From: Escherichia phage vB_ EcoD_Phleasolo
DNA length: 48,301 nt
Sequence record: OL539447.1
Direction: 5' to 3' (one strand)
Numbering within the stretch: position 1 is the stretch's first letter; each line of letters starts with the position of its first letter. Under the pieces are notes generated by a model. That model was not told the origin of the DNA and ran no database searches. It saw only the letters and a list, made by a program, of their open reading frames with translations. This document shows positions 6,977-42,682 of the stretch, piece after piece. Position numbers and translations under genes: made by a program.

Positions 6977-8488
6977 ATGGCTTACACAGAAATTGCTATG
7001 GCGGTAGGGAATTCACCTGAAATCTTAGCCAGGAACGTAAAAATGATGATGTCATCTGGATTTCAGCCATATGGTGACGTCCAGATGCTAAGCGGCACTC
7101 TCTTTGGCATGAAAATGGCCAAGGGAACAGCAAACAACGTTGAAGACTTTATGGTGACATCCGACACCACAGTTCAGGGATTGATTAACAGGGTTAACCG
7201 ATATCTTTTGCAGGGCTGGAAAAGGTTTGGCAATGCTCACTTTGAGGATGGAGCATATCTTTCAGCACTTGCGAAAGGTGATTTTGTAAGTGATGAAGAC
7301 GGAGGCTCAGGTGAAGCAGGCCCACAAGGTCCGATTGGTCCACAGGGTCCAGCAGGTCCCGCAGGCGCAGCTGGTCCGCAAGGTCCTCAAGGTCCAACTG
7401 GTGCAACTGGCCCAGCGGGTGCGGCAGGTGCTAAAGGTGACACTGGCCCACAAGGTCCGGCAGGTCCGCAAGGTCCTCAAGGTGAAACTGGCGAGGCTGG
7501 TCCATAGGGTCCTATCGGCCCAACGGGCGCCACAGGTCCGGCTGGCCCAAAAGGTGATAAAGGTGATGCAGGCCCAGTTGGCCCGGCAGGATTAACTTTC
7601 CGCGGGATGTACGACGCAGCTACTGCTTACGTTAAAGATGATGTGGTTACATTCAATAACTCTAGCTGGTTTGCTACCGCCGCTGTGACCGGAGAGAATC
7701 CAGATGTTAGCGATTCCTGGGAGTTGCTGGCCGCGCAGGGCGCTCCAGGTCCGCAAGGCGCAACTGGTCCAGCAGGCCCAACTGGCCCGGCAGGCCCTGC
7801 AGGTATTCAGGGACCTCAGGGAGAGAGAGGGCTTCATGGTGAGCAAGGTCCGTCAGGCCCGCAAGGCTTGCAAGGTGCAGCTGGTCCAGTTGGACCTCAA
7901 GGCCCAGCAGGTCCTCAGGGTGAGCGAGGAATACAGGGTCCGGTTGGCCCTCAAGGATTGCAGGGTGTAAAAGGTGATCCAGGCGTTAATTCTACATATA
8001 CACTACCTTTAAAAAACTACCTTGTAATAGCCCTTAATGAAGAGGAGGGGGCGAGGCAGACATTCAGGGTGCCAGAAGACAGTTCGGGAGCTGAAATAGC
8101 TTTTGTGGTCAGAAATAAAGATTCTTCAAACACTTCACCATCTGGAGTTTATGAGCTGGGATGTGGAGTGACTGGTACGGCTTCAATGCACTTTTCAGGT
8201 TGGATTATTAGTAACCTTAACCAACCAGATAAAATAAGATCAGCCTCTATGCTAATTGCTTCCATGACTAATAGTCAGCGATACTTTACGCAGTTAGCAA
8301 TAGGAACAAGGGGTGATCTTTTTAAAGGTTGCTTAACCAATCAGGAAACTGGTGAGCTATGGTACATTGAGGCTTTTGGTACCAAGCCAAGAGGGGCAGG
8401 GCAAACCGACTTAGGTAGACTCTCAGTTAAGATTGAGAAAAGAGTTGATACAGTAGTTGGAAGCTTAACAAAATTCCCAAGAGTTTAA
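6977..8488 (+). CDS. collagen-like (Gly-X-Y repeat) protein with a globular C-terminal domain, interrupted by an in-frame TAG at 7505-7507
   Basis: Two same-frame ORFs (6977-7507 and 7607-8488) separated only by one TAG; Gly-X-Y repeats (GPQGPAGP...) run through the stop in perfect register. Confidence 0.6.
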
Positions 8489-24596: not shown

Positions 24597-24791
24597 ATGG
24601 CATACTTCATTATTCAAGAGCGAAACAATCCGATTTTCGGCACGGTATACTACTGCGAGGATGGTTCCGGATACTGCGACCACAAAGCTGACGCCAAGAG
24701 ATTCGATACTAAAGCTGAGGCAATGGAATGGGGCAGCATTAACGATGAGGAGCTGGGTGGAATTGTTAAGGTGATTAAGGTTAAGGAGTAA
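24597..24791 (+). CDS. hypothetical protein
   Basis: 64-aa ORF with RBS. Confidence 0.4.
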   Translation: MAYFIIQERNNPIFGTVYYCEDGSGYCDHKADAKRFDTKAEAMEWGSINDEELGGIVKVIKVKE

Positions 24792-24794
24792 TTC

Positions 24795-25754
24795 ATGAGC
24801 TTCAAGGTTTACACTAACGATGAGTTAACCAACGAAGCCTACCATGAGGAGTCTGACCATGTGTCTGGCTCTGGTCTGGCTCACATCTTCTCAACTTGCC
24901 CAGCCGCATACAAATACGCTGAGCATGATGATAGCAGTAAAGCGTTAAAGTTCGGTACATTGGCTCACACGATGGTTTTGGAGAGCTCTGTATTTGATGC
25001 GACATACTATCGTCAGCCAGCGCAGGAAGAGTTTGAAGACCTGATTACCAGTAAGGCTGCATTAGCAGCAAGACTGAAAGCGATGGGAATTGCTGGAACT
25101 TCTGGAAAGGATTACCCTGAATTAATGGAGATACTGGCACTGACTGGTGAATCACTCAACGTATGGTGGGATATCCAGCGCTCTAGCGAGATTAAAGCAG
25201 AAGGCCGCGAGATTGTATCAGCTAAGGACTTTGACACCGTACAGGCGATGCGAGAGGTTTTGTGTGGAATTCCTGCTTACAATGCAATAGTTAACAGTGA
25301 AACCGCTCAGCGTGAACTATCAATTTTCGGTGAGATTAACGATTGTGGAGTGAAGGTAAGACTGGACCATGTTGATGTAGTTGGTGATGTTGTTTATATC
25401 CGAGATTACAAAACAACTAGCGACGCTTCTCCGTCAGGTTTCGGTCGCCTCGCCTTTAAGCATGGTTACTTGTTAAAGATGGCACTTCAACATGACTTAT
25501 TTGTGCGAGCCTTTAATGAAAAGAGGCGAGTTGTTGTTCAGCTATTGGCGCAGGAAAAAAAGAGCCCGTACCTACCAATGTGCTACACGATAACAAAAGA
25601 ACAGTTAAGGGTTGGTAGGTTGCAATACATGAGTGCGCTTTCTACATACAAGCATTGTAAGAAGCTTGATATCTGGCCTGGGTATGGGTTCGGTGAAACA
25701 GAGATGGAATTGCAGATACCTGAATATGAGATGAAGAAATATGAATTGGCATGA
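24795..25754 (+). CDS. PD-(D/E)XK-type recombination exonuclease
   Basis: D...VYIRDYKT motif typical of the nuclease superfamily core; sits with Erf and SSB. Confidence 0.55.
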   Translation: MSFKVYTNDELTNEAYHEESDHVSGSGLAHIFSTCPAAYKYAEHDDSSKALKFGTLAHTMVLESSVFDATYYRQPAQEEFEDLITSKAALAARLKAMGIAGTSGKDYPELMEILALTGESLNVWWDIQRSSEIKAEGREIVSAKDFDTVQAMREVLCGIPAYNAIVNSETAQRELSIFGEINDCGVKVRLDHVDVVGDVVYIRDYKTTSDASPSGFGRLAFKHGYLLKMALQHDLFVRAFNEKRRVVVQLLAQEKKSPYLPMCYTITKEQLRVGRLQYMSALSTYKHCKKLDIWPGYGFGETEMELQIPEYEMKKYELA

Positions 25755-26196
25755 TATTTTTGAGTATATAGATGGATGCATAATATGGCGTGCTAGTGGT
25801 AATGTTGCTGGTTACAAACGAAAGGATGGTTATGTGATTGTGACAATAAATGGTAAGAAAATACTAGCGCATCGGATAATATACGAAATGAATAACGGAG
25901 ATATAGAGCCAGGTATGCAAATTGACCATATTGACCACAATCCATCAAACAACAGGATTGAAAACCTTAGGGTGGTTAACCACCAGGAGAACCAATCCAA
26001 TAAGTCAAAGCAGTCAAATAACACTTCAGGGGTTACTGGCGTTTGGCTACATAAGAAATCTGGAAGGTTTGTAGCTGAAATAATGGTTGAAAAGAAGAAG
26101 ATACATATAGGCTACTTTGATGACAAGCTGAATGCGGCAAAGGCTAGAAAGGATGCTGAAATTAAGTTTGGGTTTCATAAAAATCATGGAAAATAG
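25741..26196 (+). CDS. HNH homing endonuclease with AP2 DNA-binding domain
   Basis: HRIIYEMNNG...IDHIDHNPSNNRIENLRVVNHQEN (HNH) followed by GVTGVWLHKKSGRFVAEI...YFDDKLNAAKARKDAE (AP2-like). Confidence 0.8.
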   Translation: MNWHDIFEYIDGCIIWRASGNVAGYKRKDGYVIVTINGKKILAHRIIYEMNNGDIEPGMQIDHIDHNPSNNRIENLRVVNHQENQSNKSKQSNNTSGVTGVWLHKKSGRFVAEIMVEKKKIHIGYFDDKLNAAKARKDAEIKFGFHKNHGK

Positions 26197-26263
26197 CACG
26201 AATAGCTAAAACAACATTAAATCGGTGAGGTATAGTTACCTCATCGACAACGAGAGGAAAAGT

Positions 26264-26914
26264 ATGAATACCAGCGACAAAAACACAAACGTTTTAAAGG
26301 CTCTATTTGAAGCTAAGAGCAAGTTTGCCAAGGCTGAAAAGTCAAAGCAGAACTCGCACCTCAAGAACAAATATGCAACATTAGATGACGTACTCGCAGC
26401 TGTAGAGCCTGGATTGGAGGATAGCGGTCTTGTGATGTTCCAGAGCATGATTGAGTCAGAAGTTGCAAATCAGATTAAGGTTGAGACTAAGATTTATCAT
26501 GCTGAGTCTGCTGAATGGGTTTCTTTCCTGACTATCGTTCCGTTGGCTAAAAATGACTGCCAGGGAACCGGCTCGTCATTAACGTACGCTCGACGCTACG
26601 CTATTACGGCAGCTCTCGGTCTTAGTCAGGCTGATGATGACGGCAATCTTGCAGTCAAGAGCGTCAAGGACTGGCGTAAAGATGTGGAAAAAGCAGAGTC
26701 TCGCGATGAACTTGTAGAGGTTTACAAGGCTTGTAAATCACAAGCTGATGCAGCAACGTGGGGTATTGTAGAGAAGGCCATCATCGAAAAGCAGGCGGAG
26801 ATTAAGATGGCATCTGCGAGCGGGTTCAATCCAGCTAAACCAAAAGAAGTAACTAAAGTTGTTGCAAATGCACCGAGTGAAGCTGTAGAATCACAATCAA
26901 TCGAACGGTTCTAA
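26264..26914 (+). CDS. erf: Erf-family single-strand annealing protein
   Basis: NSHLKNKYATLDDVLAAVEPGL and ARRYAITAALGL resemble conserved Erf blocks; start moved to ATG 26264 after GAGAGGAAAAGT. Confidence 0.65.
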   Translation: MNTSDKNTNVLKALFEAKSKFAKAEKSKQNSHLKNKYATLDDVLAAVEPGLEDSGLVMFQSMIESEVANQIKVETKIYHAESAEWVSFLTIVPLAKNDCQGTGSSLTYARRYAITAALGLSQADDDGNLAVKSVKDWRKDVEKAESRDELVEVYKACKSQADAATWGIVEKAIIEKQAEIKMASASGFNPAKPKEVTKVVANAPSEAVESQSIERF

Positions 26915-26961
26915 ATTAAACGGGGCTTCGGCCCCAAAATCAAACGAGAAGAGAATATAAA

Positions 26962-27387
26962 ATGCATACTTTAACAGGCGTAATTCGCAAAGCTCCTTAC
27001 ACCAAAGATGGTCAGAATGCTAAAGGCAAATGGAAGATGTACGCTATCGAGATGAGCGAATCCTACAAGACTAAAGACGGAGAGCGTAAATATACTAACT
27101 ATCGAATAACGATGTTTGCTAGTGAGGCGCAGATTGGCTGGTATGATGAGGCATTTCAGGAAGGAAAAGTTATCTCTGTGAGTGGTGATTCATTGGTGGT
27201 TAATGAGCGTGAGCATAATGGTAAGGTCTACATCACTCTGGAGTTTCAGAATCCTCGATTAATGTTTAGCCAGCGAGGTGGGGAATCGGAACCACAGCAA
27301 CAACAACAACGCCAGCAGCCTCAGCCTCAGCAGCAGCGACAGCAGCCACAGCAGCAAAGCCAGTTCGATGACGATATTCCGTTCTGA
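26962..27387 (+). CDS. ssb: single-stranded DNA-binding protein
   Basis: OB-fold-sized N-terminal domain, Gln/Pro-rich linker and the classic acidic tail ...FDDDIPF. Confidence 0.85.
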   Translation: MHTLTGVIRKAPYTKDGQNAKGKWKMYAIEMSESYKTKDGERKYTNYRITMFASEAQIGWYDEAFQEGKVISVSGDSLVVNEREHNGKVYITLEFQNPRLMFSQRGGESEPQQQQQRQQPQPQQQRQQPQQQSQFDDDIPF

Positions 27388-27398
27388 TGTAAAATATA

Positions 27399-27422
27399 AA
27401 GCCCCTTTCGGGGCTTTTTTTA
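27399..27422. terminator. bidirectional terminator
   Basis: AGCCCC-TTTC-GGGGCT hairpin flanked by an A run and a T7 run; between convergent ssb and tail fibre genes. Confidence 0.7.
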
Positions 27423-30032
27423 TATTGCTCTAACCTGCCACCTTTTATCATAAAAGTGAGCAAATCCACTATATGTTAATTTAAGGTGGCAAAGGAATGT
27501 GCTTACCGATGCAGTTGGTGTTAAAATCCTCAGGAATGTCTGACCACCAGTCACGTACTTAGTAATAGAAACCCCATCAAGAGAAGTGCTTTTTGAGCCA
27601 GTCGACTTAGCTATCTTGTTATACCAAGGTATTCCTGATGAGACATTGGCCTTAGTGCTTCCAGATAAGCTAAATTGAATAATACCTCCTGATTCCTGAC
27701 CGCCTAATCCATTCTTATTAATTGGTATAAGGCTCAACTCTCCAGCAATAAATGTTGACCCATACCTGGACTCCTCACCAACTGTAGTAAGAAGGATATC
27801 AAGCGCCCTGTTATAAGGCAGCAATAAAGTAGCATCCTCAGTTCTGACCTGATTGAAGTCCATTCCACTAGTAACATGAACAGCAGATAACGTAGTTCCG
27901 TTATATGAGTTCCTTGCTTCAACTGGTGACTCGCCATATGTCACGTTGCCAACTTTAGTGCTCCTCAACGTGCTCTTTGAGAATGAACCAGTGTATTGAC
28001 TGTTAATAATCCTGAAGTCATCACCAAAATGAACAGAGTTACCTTCTGCAGTTGGGTTTGAAATGGTGTTTTCCATAATCATCAAGGCGTAATCAGACTT
28101 GAAATAACCATCGCTAAAACGTATCGATCCAACTGGCATTCTACTTTCATTAGCTGGCAATTTTATCATCCTAAGGACTCCAGTGTTCATGCTTGATTGA
28201 ATCCAGCAAGAAAACCCCTTTACATCAAATCCAAACTGATCGTCATCACCACCATAGTCGGAGAAATCAAATACAGTATCTCCATTAACACCCTCAACCC
28301 CAGCACCTACGATATTAACAGACCTTAACTGGCCACCAATCTTGTGTGGAGTTAAGCAACCATCAGCAGCTATGTTTGTCGCAGTGACATACATAACAGG
28401 AAAACCACCAGCTACAGGCTCCAGGGTTGTTGTGTTAATGCCGTAACCCCAAAGAAAGCCAACATCACAGTGGTGTGCCCATACAGAATCAAGGGCGGTA
28501 CTTGTATTACCTGAAAGTCCAATGCCGTATGTGCAATCGTACATGTATACATTTGAAATTTTAGAAACAAATGTCAGTGTTGATAATGCATACTTGTAAT
28601 GATAAAACTCAACGTTATCTATTGTGTACTGCTTGCCGCCACCACCTTGACCTGAGTCATTTCCGCTAATTAGAGGTGAGCCGTTATAATCAGCATCTGC
28701 GTTCCTGAAGCCAATGTTTTTAACAAACATATTGTGACCCCAAGGCGAAACAATGAAGCCACCATTGCCAGATGTGTAAATCAAACACCTCCTAGGAGTT
28801 GCTGTACCTTCAATCCTAATTGTCTGTCCTGAGAACCTCTCACCAGATACGTTGACCCTTGTTGTGCCAATGTAGATAGGCCTATCAATGAGAATCTTCT
28901 TGTTTAATTTGATTGATGCTGTGTAGCACTTCTGCATAGCAACGCCATCGTTAGACACGCCAGTCAAATCAGCGGCGCCCATGCTTGGTGCTTTTGGATA
29001 TGGCGTACCTTGGATTGTATTTCCATCAATATATGGCGCGTTCATCAGAGCACCAAACATCATTGGTGACAAGCCTTCAATCAATGAAAGATCTCGCTTC
29101 CATCTGTGGTTTCCGGTAGTGACAATAACAACACCATCATCATCTGTGCTGGTTGAATCATTGGCATCGTAATAGAACCAGCCACCGCCAAGCATGCTAG
29201 TCCCTGAGTGACTAGATACATAAACCCGCTCACCGTCACGAAGTGGCACCAAGCCCCTCAAAATAGATAAGTTATCAACATTACGATCAGCAAATGACAA
29301 AGGCACCCATCCAGAAGATGAAACCCCTCCAGTTGACTCAGGGGTTGAGTTAGCCGGGACGGTTTTAGGAAGCGCGCCCGCCCAAATGTAAGGGACAGCA
29401 ATACCAGATGAAATGTCAATTACCTGTTGAGTTGCTGATTGAATAGTTACGCCAGACTGAAATGAGCCAATGAGAGCACCAGAAACTGACTGAGCTGCTG
29501 ACTCAGCACTTTGAGCAGAGGATGCTGCGTTAGATGCACTTAAACCCGCTGCATCCCTCGCCGCCTCAGCTTGAGATAATGAGGACTGAACATCTGCCTT
29601 ATCTGCCGATACTTGCAAGGCATCACTGGCAACCTGCTGAGACTGGTTGTTTACGTTTGTGACATTTTGCTGGAATGCATCAGCATCAAACTGATTAAAA
29701 GCATCAACAGCTGCTGCGACTTCAGTCTCATTTGACTGATAGTAACGCAAGGTTTCAGCAACATCCTGAGCAAGTCCCTGAACAGTAATCCCGTCGTGAG
29801 CAAGAATTGAGTACTGAGTACCAGTCGGAGCGGTAAATCCCTTGTCGTTAAAAACTCGAATTTCGGTATCACTGATTATTTCAGCAATGGTAACAATACT
29901 TGCTGGCGTGGTATTGAAAATCATTGTTGCGCCAACTCGAATTAGAGTTAACGGCTGCCTCCAGGTAGTACCAACACCAGTTACAGTTCCGTCAGCTGCA
30001 AGCGATGCTGTTCCCGCGTCATAAATTGCCAT
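27420..30032 (-). CDS. tail fibre / tailspike protein (possible beta-helix depolymerase domain)
   Basis: 870 aa; Ala/Ser/Gln-rich shaft segment (SQAEAARDAAGLSASNAASSAQSAESAAQS) followed by a large Gly/Asn/Thr-rich domain. Confidence 0.6.
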   Translation of the reverse strand: MAIYDAGTASLAADGTVTGVGTTWRQPLTLIRVGATMIFNTTPASIVTIAEIISDTEIRVFNDKGFTAPTGTQYSILAHDGITVQGLAQDVAETLRYYQSNETEVAAAVDAFNQFDADAFQQNVTNVNNQSQQVASDALQVSADKADVQSSLSQAEAARDAAGLSASNAASSAQSAESAAQSVSGALIGSFQSGVTIQSATQQVIDISSGIAVPYIWAGALPKTVPANSTPESTGGVSSSGWVPLSFADRNVDNLSILRGLVPLRDGERVYVSSHSGTSMLGGGWFYYDANDSTSTDDDGVVIVTTGNHRWKRDLSLIEGLSPMMFGALMNAPYIDGNTIQGTPYPKAPSMGAADLTGVSNDGVAMQKCYTASIKLNKKILIDRPIYIGTTRVNVSGERFSGQTIRIEGTATPRRCLIYTSGNGGFIVSPWGHNMFVKNIGFRNADADYNGSPLISGNDSGQGGGGKQYTIDNVEFYHYKYALSTLTFVSKISNVYMYDCTYGIGLSGNTSTALDSVWAHHCDVGFLWGYGINTTTLEPVAGGFPVMYVTATNIAADGCLTPHKIGGQLRSVNIVGAGVEGVNGDTVFDFSDYGGDDDQFGFDVKGFSCWIQSSMNTGVLRMIKLPANESRMPVGSIRFSDGYFKSDYALMIMENTISNPTAEGNSVHFGDDFRIINSQYTGSFSKSTLRSTKVGNVTYGESPVEARNSYNGTTLSAVHVTSGMDFNQVRTEDATLLLPYNRALDILLTTVGEESRYGSTFIAGELSLIPINKNGLGGQESGGIIQFSLSGSTKANVSSGIPWYNKIAKSTGSKSTSLDGVSITKYVTGGQTFLRILTPTASVSTFLCHLKLTYSGFAHFYDKRWQVRAI

Positions 30033-30110
30033 TTTATTTCTCCTCTTTGATAGATGAAACCTATTGTATCAGATTAGTTGTAATAAAAAACCCTCCGAAG
30101 AGGGTAATTG

Positions 30111-42257: not shown

Positions 42258-42682
42258 GATGGATTGATGGAATGAAGGAGGGCGCATCAACTAGTTGGTT
42301 GGTTTTAGCTTACACGAGGAGCTTTCCTTTATATACGCGTTATGGCTTGTTCAACCGTGTGGAGAAATTGCCATATTTACGCCATCCACGCCAGTTTACG
42401 CGCTGGTTACAAAATAAATCCCTTATATAACAACCTTTTAGATTTATTATTATTATTATTATTATATATGTTATCCCGTAACCATGATTATCCAAGATAT
42501 TGGTGATATTTTTTTGATATTGCGCGGCGCATAAAGATTTAGATAAAGAGATAGGGATGCAAGTGGGGTGGAGAAAATGGCTTAACAGACCATAACGGCA
42601 ATAACAGCCTTGATATGACTAGCGTCAGCATGTAACAATTTAGCATAACGTGCGATTACTGAGTTGAACGTGTAAATAATGC

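Follow-up and report, generated by a model that had tools for sequence, protein, structure and literature searches.

Does a glutamine-codon-rich stretch near the end of a phage ssb gene act as a mutable repeat that changes the length of a protein linker, or does it encode a disordered tether whose length is held? The question arises from the 48,301-nt stretch of DNA analysed here (the window), in which a sequence-only reading had pointed out a CAG/CAA-rich low-complexity tract, assigned it to the SSB linker before the acidic tail, and proposed that such a tract is prone to slippage and length variation that could tune the linker. Part of the answer is already known, in that the gene carries an SSB annotation in GenBank and a disordered linker before an acidic tip is the textbook architecture of a bacterial-type SSB.

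The phage is a T1-like siphovirus, and its next relatives, JK06, Rogue1, AHP24/42, C119 and BECP10, belong to the Drexlerviridae, Rogunavirinae. A 5.4-kb query (24700-30100 of the window) was 100% identical over its full length to OL539453.1, OL539451.1 and OL539467.1, which are Klebsiella phage vB_KpnD_Opt-79 (OL539453.1, 48,301 bp) and the Escherichia phages vB_EcoD_Opt-719 and vB_EcoD_Sadiya. The isolates come from a set of 22 T1-like phages announced in a genome note (PMC9119101). The three records name different hosts, namely Klebsiella, Escherichia and, for an 'Escherichia phage', Serratia marcescens, and their genome lengths of 48,301, 48,302 and 48,303 are 1-2 bp apart. Judged by these sequences, the records appear to be essentially one phage deposited three times with differing start points.

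The ssb gene is predicted to encode a bacterial-type SSB

The ssb gene (26962..27387, plus strand) encodes 141 amino acids followed by a stop codon, with a C-terminus that reads ...FSQRGGESEPQQQQQRQQPQPQQQRQQPQQQSQFDDDIPF, and it is annotated as an ssDNA-binding protein in the three matching records. The ORF matched PHROG_44 'single strand DNA binding protein' end to end with an E value of 1e-30. The Pfam SSB family (PF00436) gave only a sub-threshold hit on the ORF, with 13.2 bits where the gathering cut-off is 26 (E = 0.094). PDB sequences searched with a profile of the SSB family returned no significant match, the best SSB being Rim1 (E = 0.46). Since both of these profile results are below significance, the assignment to the SSBs relies on the PHROG match together with the predicted fold and the tip motif.

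The AlphaFold2 model, a monomer built on 53 relatives, places an OB-fold ssDNA-binding core in residues 1-105 (26962..27276, plus strand), which form a beta-barrel with eight beta strands and a helix at residues 55-64 and have pLDDT values of 83-94 per 10-residue block. The top 50 PDB matches of this core in Foldseek were mostly bacterial or organellar SSBs, while the rest, lower in the list, were other OB-fold ssDNA-binding proteins. The top SSBs (3ulp, 3pgz, 4dam, 2vw9, 6jdg, 1eyg, 1qvc and others) come from Plasmodium, Bartonella, Streptomyces, Helicobacter, Pseudomonas and E. coli (1eyg/1qvc); the best E value was 2e-4 and the TM scores normalised to the target were 0.5-0.63.

Residues 106-141 of the model have pLDDT below 50 and no secondary structure. 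They comprise the disordered linker (residues 106-134, GGESEPQQQQQRQQPQPQQQRQQPQQQSQ; 27277..27363, plus strand), in which the length variation of the protein sits, and the acidic C-terminal tip FDDDIPF (27364..27384, plus strand), an SSB-Ct motif read directly from the sequence. E. coli SSB ends in the same seven residues, and D138, I139, P140 and F141 are invariant in the 53-sequence alignment. The FDDDIPF motif is confirmed in PMC5872125 and bioRxiv 10.64898/2026.04.29.721553. With the PHROG_44 match, the OB-fold model, the disordered tail and the FDDDIPF tip taken together, the ORF is predicted to be a bacterial-type SSB consisting of an OB core, a disordered linker and an acidic tip, and the earlier assignment of the tract to an SSB linker before the acidic tail was correct.

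The Gln-rich tract is interrupted and compositionally biased

The Gln-rich tract is real and covers residues 112-132 (QQQQQRQQPQPQQQRQQPQQQ) at 27295..27357 on the plus strand according to the codon listing; the coordinates given earlier (27296-27360) start one base late and end three bases late. Gln accounts for 16 of the 21 residues compared with 4.4% genome-wide (binomial P = 3e-18), and no other stop-free 21-residue six-frame window in the genome contains more than 8 Gln. The codons are CAG CAA CAA CAA CAA CGC CAG CAG CCT CAG CCT CAG CAG CAG CGA CAG CAG CCA CAG CAG CAA, and the tract can be read as two imperfect 9-codon modules of the form QQQRQQPQx.

Tandem Repeats Finder reported only weak rows on the tract, with scores of 32-44 and 68-84% matches, among them one of period 9 (4.8 copies, 73% matches, score 44) and one of period 6 (68% matches). 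The longest perfect trinucleotide run is (CAA)4 at 27298..27309 on the plus strand (12 nt), and at 27316-27330 a 6-nt unit is repeated perfectly 2.5 times (CAG-CCT-CAG-CCT-CAG). Because the Tandem Repeats Finder rows are imperfect and perfect runs reach no further than (CAA)4, the tract is better described as compositionally biased and interrupted than as a clean microsatellite. No perfect trinucleotide microsatellite in the genome is longer than the (TTA)7 at 42444-42465, which makes a better candidate for slippage than the tract in ssb.

Two ORFs that overlap the tract, 27266..27469 on the minus strand (67 aa) and 27278..27433 on the plus strand (51 aa), were rejected as coding and regarded as a side effect of the repeat. 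The one on the minus strand continues through the terminator downstream of ssb, and among relatives the CAA/CAG changes are synonymous in the ssb frame only.

Tail length and composition among relatives

A protein search found 553 SSB homologues, the best 120 of which were inspected, and 69 further members of ten 90%-identity clusters were added. In all, 189 proteins were collected and 186 were used for tail statistics; all length variation falls between ...FSQRG and IPF. The OB end is at a fixed position in 112 of the 112 parsed proteins, in which the tails have 23-38 residues. Over the 186 proteins the tail is 19-41 residues long (median 32, SD 3.1), and that of the window has 32. The extreme lengths (19-24 and 41) come from metagenome assemblies, which are possibly wrong in low-complexity DNA, while the tails of NCBI-deposited sequences have 29-35 residues. 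More distant T1-like isolates gave full-length tblastn matches of about 137-153 aa in total. Pure Gln runs reach 5 residues in the window and 3-11 in relatives. The comparison among related phage SSBs that the sequence-only reading had proposed as a check therefore found a linker whose length is not invariant, with tails from 19 to 41 residues.

We compared the tails of protein pairs at different levels of divergence. Where OB cores were at least 98% identical, the pairs differed in length by ~2.9 residues on average (absolute difference), a value that ignores kinship and comes from a homologue set made up of distinct sequences only, in which differences among near-identical proteins are inflated. 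The mean was ~3.3 at 60-80% OB identity and 2.6-3.4 across all greater divergences, again with kinship ignored. As the difference is similar at every divergence, the length spread is stationary and narrow. A close clade contains two coexisting tip types, a short QFDDDIPF and a long RFxDEEDIPF, and the total tail is nearly the same in both (34.19 residues for the short tip and 34.45 for the long tip, P = 0.85, kinship ignored). The Q-core is ~3 residues shorter where the tip is ~3.6 residues longer (P = 2e-4, kinship ignored). These comparisons suggest a tail length that is kept, not explored. Insertions and deletions in balance can also produce a bounded length distribution in the absence of selection. 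The idea that slippage tunes the linker length does not fit a narrow, stationary spread in which the Q-core compensates for the length of the tip; these data point instead to a length kept near a set value.

The composition is similarly restricted. The Q-core of the 186 relatives is 75% Gln, and 839 of its 1061 non-Gln residues are P (368), R (252), K (112) or H (107), all of which are single-nucleotide neighbours of CAA/CAG. The other two such neighbours are rare, with 8 Leu and 3 Glu. This scarcity points to selection against hydrophobic and acidic residues in the linker and would otherwise be hard to explain. Near the tip, the columns Q123, Q124, Q128, Q130-132 and F135 are at least 90% conserved in the 53 sequences.

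Origin of the length differences

The codon order in the tract bears on how its length changes. CAA and CAG follow each other at chance, with a same-codon adjacency of 0.521 compared with 0.507 expected, and the longest identical-codon run has 2-4 codons in 32 of 33 distinct relatives, 6 in the remaining one and 4 in the window. A recent expansion by slippage would be expected to leave pure runs, and the chance-level adjacency argues against one. In the relatives used for the length comparison, the OB third positions are only 47-69% identical to those of the window, and with such heavy divergence the ordinary accumulation of small indels is enough for most length differences.

The related-loci search gave 24 loci with the alignment as query and 7 with a single SSB protein as query. 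One length change is clearly recent, in a pair that belongs to another clade than the window: contig L038 differs from phage ACG-M12 at 2 of 318 nt in the OB core and lacks 18 nt (CAT CAG CAA CAG CAG CGG) in-frame. The deleted segment is flanked by the direct repeats CGC-CAG-CAG and CGG-CAG-CAA, and it has the appearance of a footprint of direct-repeat misalignment that removed one 'RQQ...' module. In phiEB49, the site of the (CAA)4 run reads CAG CAA CAG, two codons shorter than in the window. Two other loci (L039 and L040) encode identical OB proteins, yet 27 of 318 nt differ between them (8.5%), 26 of these at third positions. We had considered the length differences at an OB identity of at least 98% as proof of hypermutability and rejected this, given such synonymous divergence and the restriction of the set to distinct sequences. 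The alignments support a tract that is indel-prone over evolutionary time, in codon units and by misalignment of short repeats, and nothing suggests the behaviour of a contingency locus.

Weighing the explanations

If the tract were a slippage-prone contingency tract, frequent CAG/CAA length mutation would generate heterogeneity within populations and adaptive tuning of the linker. Such a locus would account for the 44 pairs that have identical OB-core proteins and different tails, for the near-identical DNA pair separated by the 18-nt in-frame deletion between direct repeats, and for the position of the window's two extra Gln relative to phiEB49, which fall in its sole pure (CAA)4 run. However, pure codon runs stay short and are broken up, with 4 codons at most in the window and 6 in one exceptional relative, and the interleaving of CAA and CAG is random (0.52 compared with 0.51 expected). 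The description of the tract as a mutable repeat prone to slippage is not supported. OL539453.1, OL539451.1 and OL539467.1 have no length difference in the tail tract, the old divergence of the compared relatives (47-69% at OB third positions) explains most of the differences, and a narrow, compensated length distribution is the opposite of exploring lengths. We therefore regard this explanation as highly improbable. A different source of tail diversity would be recombination or gene conversion among co-infecting T1-like phages, possibly promoted by homing endonucleases, with local indels playing a minor part. N-terminal haplotype (MHTLTGVI or MHVITGQI) and tip type are found in every one of their four pairings in the close clade (P0001-P0029 and cluster members), and this four-gamete signal in the 420-bp ssb indicates that recombination inside the gene adds to the mosaic. 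In addition, HNH or other endonuclease genes lie at differing exo-Erf-ssb junctions in different phages, an endonuclease cassette is located exactly at the ssb stop codon in phiEB49 and ACG-M12, and L039 and L040 combine their identical OB proteins with unrelated C-terminal halves of the tail. Recombination, however, shuffles existing variants and creates no new lengths, and the deletion that distinguishes L038 from ACG-M12 carries a local footprint of misalignment. As the main source of the diversity it is possible but rather doubtful, and it is compatible with a disordered linker and does not exclude one.

Two further readings concern selection on the linker. As a neutral spacer, its Gln richness would be a mutational relic of an expanded CAR repeat, with neither composition nor length under selection. 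The positional sequence is indeed poorly conserved and most non-Q residues are one step from CAR codons. In bacterial SSBs the composition and length of the intrinsically disordered linker (IDL) are not conserved (PMC7584906), and E. coli tolerates IDL deletion in unstressed laboratory conditions (PMC7584906, PMC12143593). On the other hand, the near absence of two of the six one-step neighbours (Leu and Glu) beside the many P, R, K and H implies filtering, Gln richness is kept at OB-core identities as low as 56-60% and with synonymous sites close to saturation, the tip-adjacent module RQQPQQQ-x-Q-F contains several of the columns with at least 90% conservation, and Q-core and tip lengths compensate. 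A neutral spacer is thus very unlikely. At the other extreme, the tail could be a length-homeostatic 'ruler' that keeps the core-to-tip distance at ~34 residues of almost pure Gln, with turnover at or above the synonymous rate and the Q-core compensating for the tip; a possible driver of the turnover would be conflict with host systems that detect phage SSB tails or compete for them. We consider this stronger proposal unlikely. If it were true, linkers of 19-41 residues on near-identical OB cores would provide a ready-made allelic set for IDL tests.

The explanation we prefer, and hold to be very probable, is that the tract is the intrinsically disordered linker of a phage-encoded bacterial-type SSB, with length and composition kept within bounds. 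By homology of architecture with E. coli SSB, the OB-fold core (residues 1-105) would bind ssDNA, and the ~29-residue Gln-rich linker, uncharged to slightly basic, would serve as a flexible tether. FDDDIPF copies the SSB-Ct docking peptide of the host, and the tether would present it to genome-maintenance proteins of host and/or phage, so that the tip could reach its partners while the OB core stays on ssDNA. Candidate partners would be host chi, DnaG, ExoI or RecQ and phage Erf or exonuclease. The T1-like SSB may form a tetramer, and by analogy its Gln richness probably allows weak tail-tail or tail-core contacts between SSB oligomers that would contribute to cooperativity or condensation. 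Within the linker the sequence would be nearly free to change by CAA/CAG synonymous substitution, by in-frame gain or loss of one or a few codons, now and then of a whole 'RQQxQQQ' module, through misalignment of short direct repeats, and by single-step replacement of Gln with P, R, K or H. Selection would hold the composition (~75% Gln, no Leu or Glu) and the total tail (~34 residues from the OB end to the C-terminus, SD ~3), and we infer that selection rather than mutational equilibrium sets the linker length.

On its own the finding matters little, since the gene had been annotated before and its linker is a textbook feature with a variant composition. The descriptive gain is modest: a large clade of T1-like coliphages and Klebsiella phages carries a short, nearly pure-Gln SSB tether that is labile yet bounded in length and filtered in composition. 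This natural panel of linkers on almost identical DNA-binding cores could serve to examine what IDL length and composition do to SSB cooperativity, condensation and the recruitment of partners. The case is also a warning that a CAG/CAA-rich tract need not be a slippage switch.

Comparison with known SSB tails and repeat loci

The tail of E. coli SSB, with an IDL at about residues 113-168 and the tip MDFDDDIPF, offers the closest comparison, as both proteins have an OB core followed by a low-complexity, Gln/Pro-rich disordered linker and an acidic tip. E. coli SSB has a 56-residue IDL and a 9-residue tip (PMC7145534). The phage linker is about half as long (~29 compared with 56 residues), almost Gly-free, 70-75% Gln and punctuated by Arg, and the phage OB core is too diverged to reach the Pfam SSB threshold or to match any PDB sequence. 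In E. coli, progressive shortening of the IDL lowers UV survival in proportion and also lowers competitive fitness (PMC12143593). Across bacterial SSBs, IDL length and composition are unconserved while disorder and predicted phase-separation propensity are conserved (PMC7584906). Compared with the E. coli tail, the Rogunavirus-type SSB tail looks like a shortened version simplified towards Gln.

Among the related loci, three T1-like contigs from IMG/VR (L015, L018 and L024) have Q/P/G/S-rich SSB tails with GWGQPQQPQ and (E/Q)PPMDFDDDIPF, which is nearly the E. coli tail, despite OB cores that are unrelated at the sequence level. The resemblance suggests that these phages may have captured a host tail or converged on it.

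Phage SSBs that combine a disordered C-terminus and an SSB-Ct-like end with an adjoining recombination gene have been described before. The SSB of HK620, with the tip NDYPPF, recruits the phage annealase Sak4 to SSB-coated ssDNA through its tip (PMC5928155), and Bas52_0087 of a BASEL phage ends in FDDDIPF (bioRxiv 10.64898/2026.04.29.721553). Both differ from the present SSB in their OB architecture, Bas52_0087 having two OB folds, and no Gln-rich linker is described for them in these two reports. Our literature search for Gln-rich SSB linkers returned nothing specific to phages.

At the DNA level, the tract is similar to simple-sequence contingency loci in that it is trinucleotide-based, low-complexity coding DNA with in-frame length change among relatives and one indel between direct repeats. 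It differs from them in having an imperfect repeat with at most 4 pure units in place of a long perfect tandem repeat, in the absence of polymorphism among the three records of this phage, and in a length that is constrained rather than dispersed. The narrow and compensated length distribution speaks against a dispersive switch. Eukaryotic interrupted polyglutamine tracts mix CAG and CAA, have His, Pro or Arg interruptions and change by small in-frame indels. The ssb tract shares the mixed codons, the interruption by one-step neighbours of Gln codons and the small in-frame indels. It is much shorter than these tracts, appears to be a tether inside a bacterial-type SSB, and nothing indicates expansion or aggregation.

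Genomic context of the ssb gene

The gene lies at the end of a recombination module. Upstream of it are a PD-(D/E)XK exonuclease gene (24795-25754), an HNH endonuclease gene (HNH_3/AP2, 25741-26196) between the exonuclease and Erf genes, and the gene for the Erf annealase (26225-26914), which directly precedes ssb. A bidirectional intrinsic terminator hairpin at 27398..27424 separates the convergent ssb (plus strand) and tailspike (minus strand) genes; it has an 8-bp stem with 5 GC pairs and scored on both strands, and the equivalent hairpin in phage AHP42 is annotated as a terminator on both strands. The gene order exonuclease-(HNH)-Erf-ssb-terminator is kept in Rogunavirus relatives. Between erf and ssb we also observed a GC-rich hairpin, GGGGCTTCGGCCCC, at 26921-26936, which is terminator-like on the minus strand only and has no T-run on the plus strand. 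Rather than terminating transcription, this hairpin may influence RNA stability or processing.

The position of the HNH_3/AP2 endonuclease gene varies among phages. In the window, where its first 14 nt are shared with the end of the exonuclease gene, and in Phagiculus it occupies the exo/Erf junction, and in C119 and the locus L036 it occupies the Erf/ssb junction. It is absent from the exo-Erf-ssb module of Rogue1, AHP42 and BECP10. Its coordinates in three of the related loci are 1766-2260 (L028), 1569-2042 (L030) and 996-1499 (L036). Judged from these arrangements, the exo-Erf-ssb module is a hotspot for the insertion of homing-type endonucleases.

A further insertion was observed at the 3' end of ssb. 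In 11 of the 189 SSB proteins, a conserved 15-aa extension follows ...DDIPF (APIGLQYGMSNIYVL, ALFGLQYGKHRIYAL and similar), and homology of these relatives to the window ends exactly after the terminal Phe codon (ssb stop at 27385-27387). Loci with the extension include those of phiEB49 (L001, 1501-1962) and ACG-M12 (L031, 1578-2439) as well as L037 (1501-2395), L038 (452-1295) and L036 (1501-2140). The DNA inserted at the ssb stop contains a Cys-rich ORF of ~136-148 aa that is annotated as 'endonuclease' in ACG-M12, and the likely ATG of this ORF overlaps the end of the SSB extension. In L036 the Cys-rich ORF has decayed to a remnant and the SSB extension is retained. The insertion resembles a mobile endonuclease cassette that entered at the ssb stop codon, and the 15-aa extension would hide the free carboxylate at the C-terminus, which the SSB-Ct tip normally requires.

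Away from the ssb region, 7315-7803 of the window contains arrays of 9-nt GGTCCx-type repeats with periods of 9, 18, 36 and 45, which encode collagen-like Gly-X-Y repeats, presumably in a tail fibre or decoration gene.
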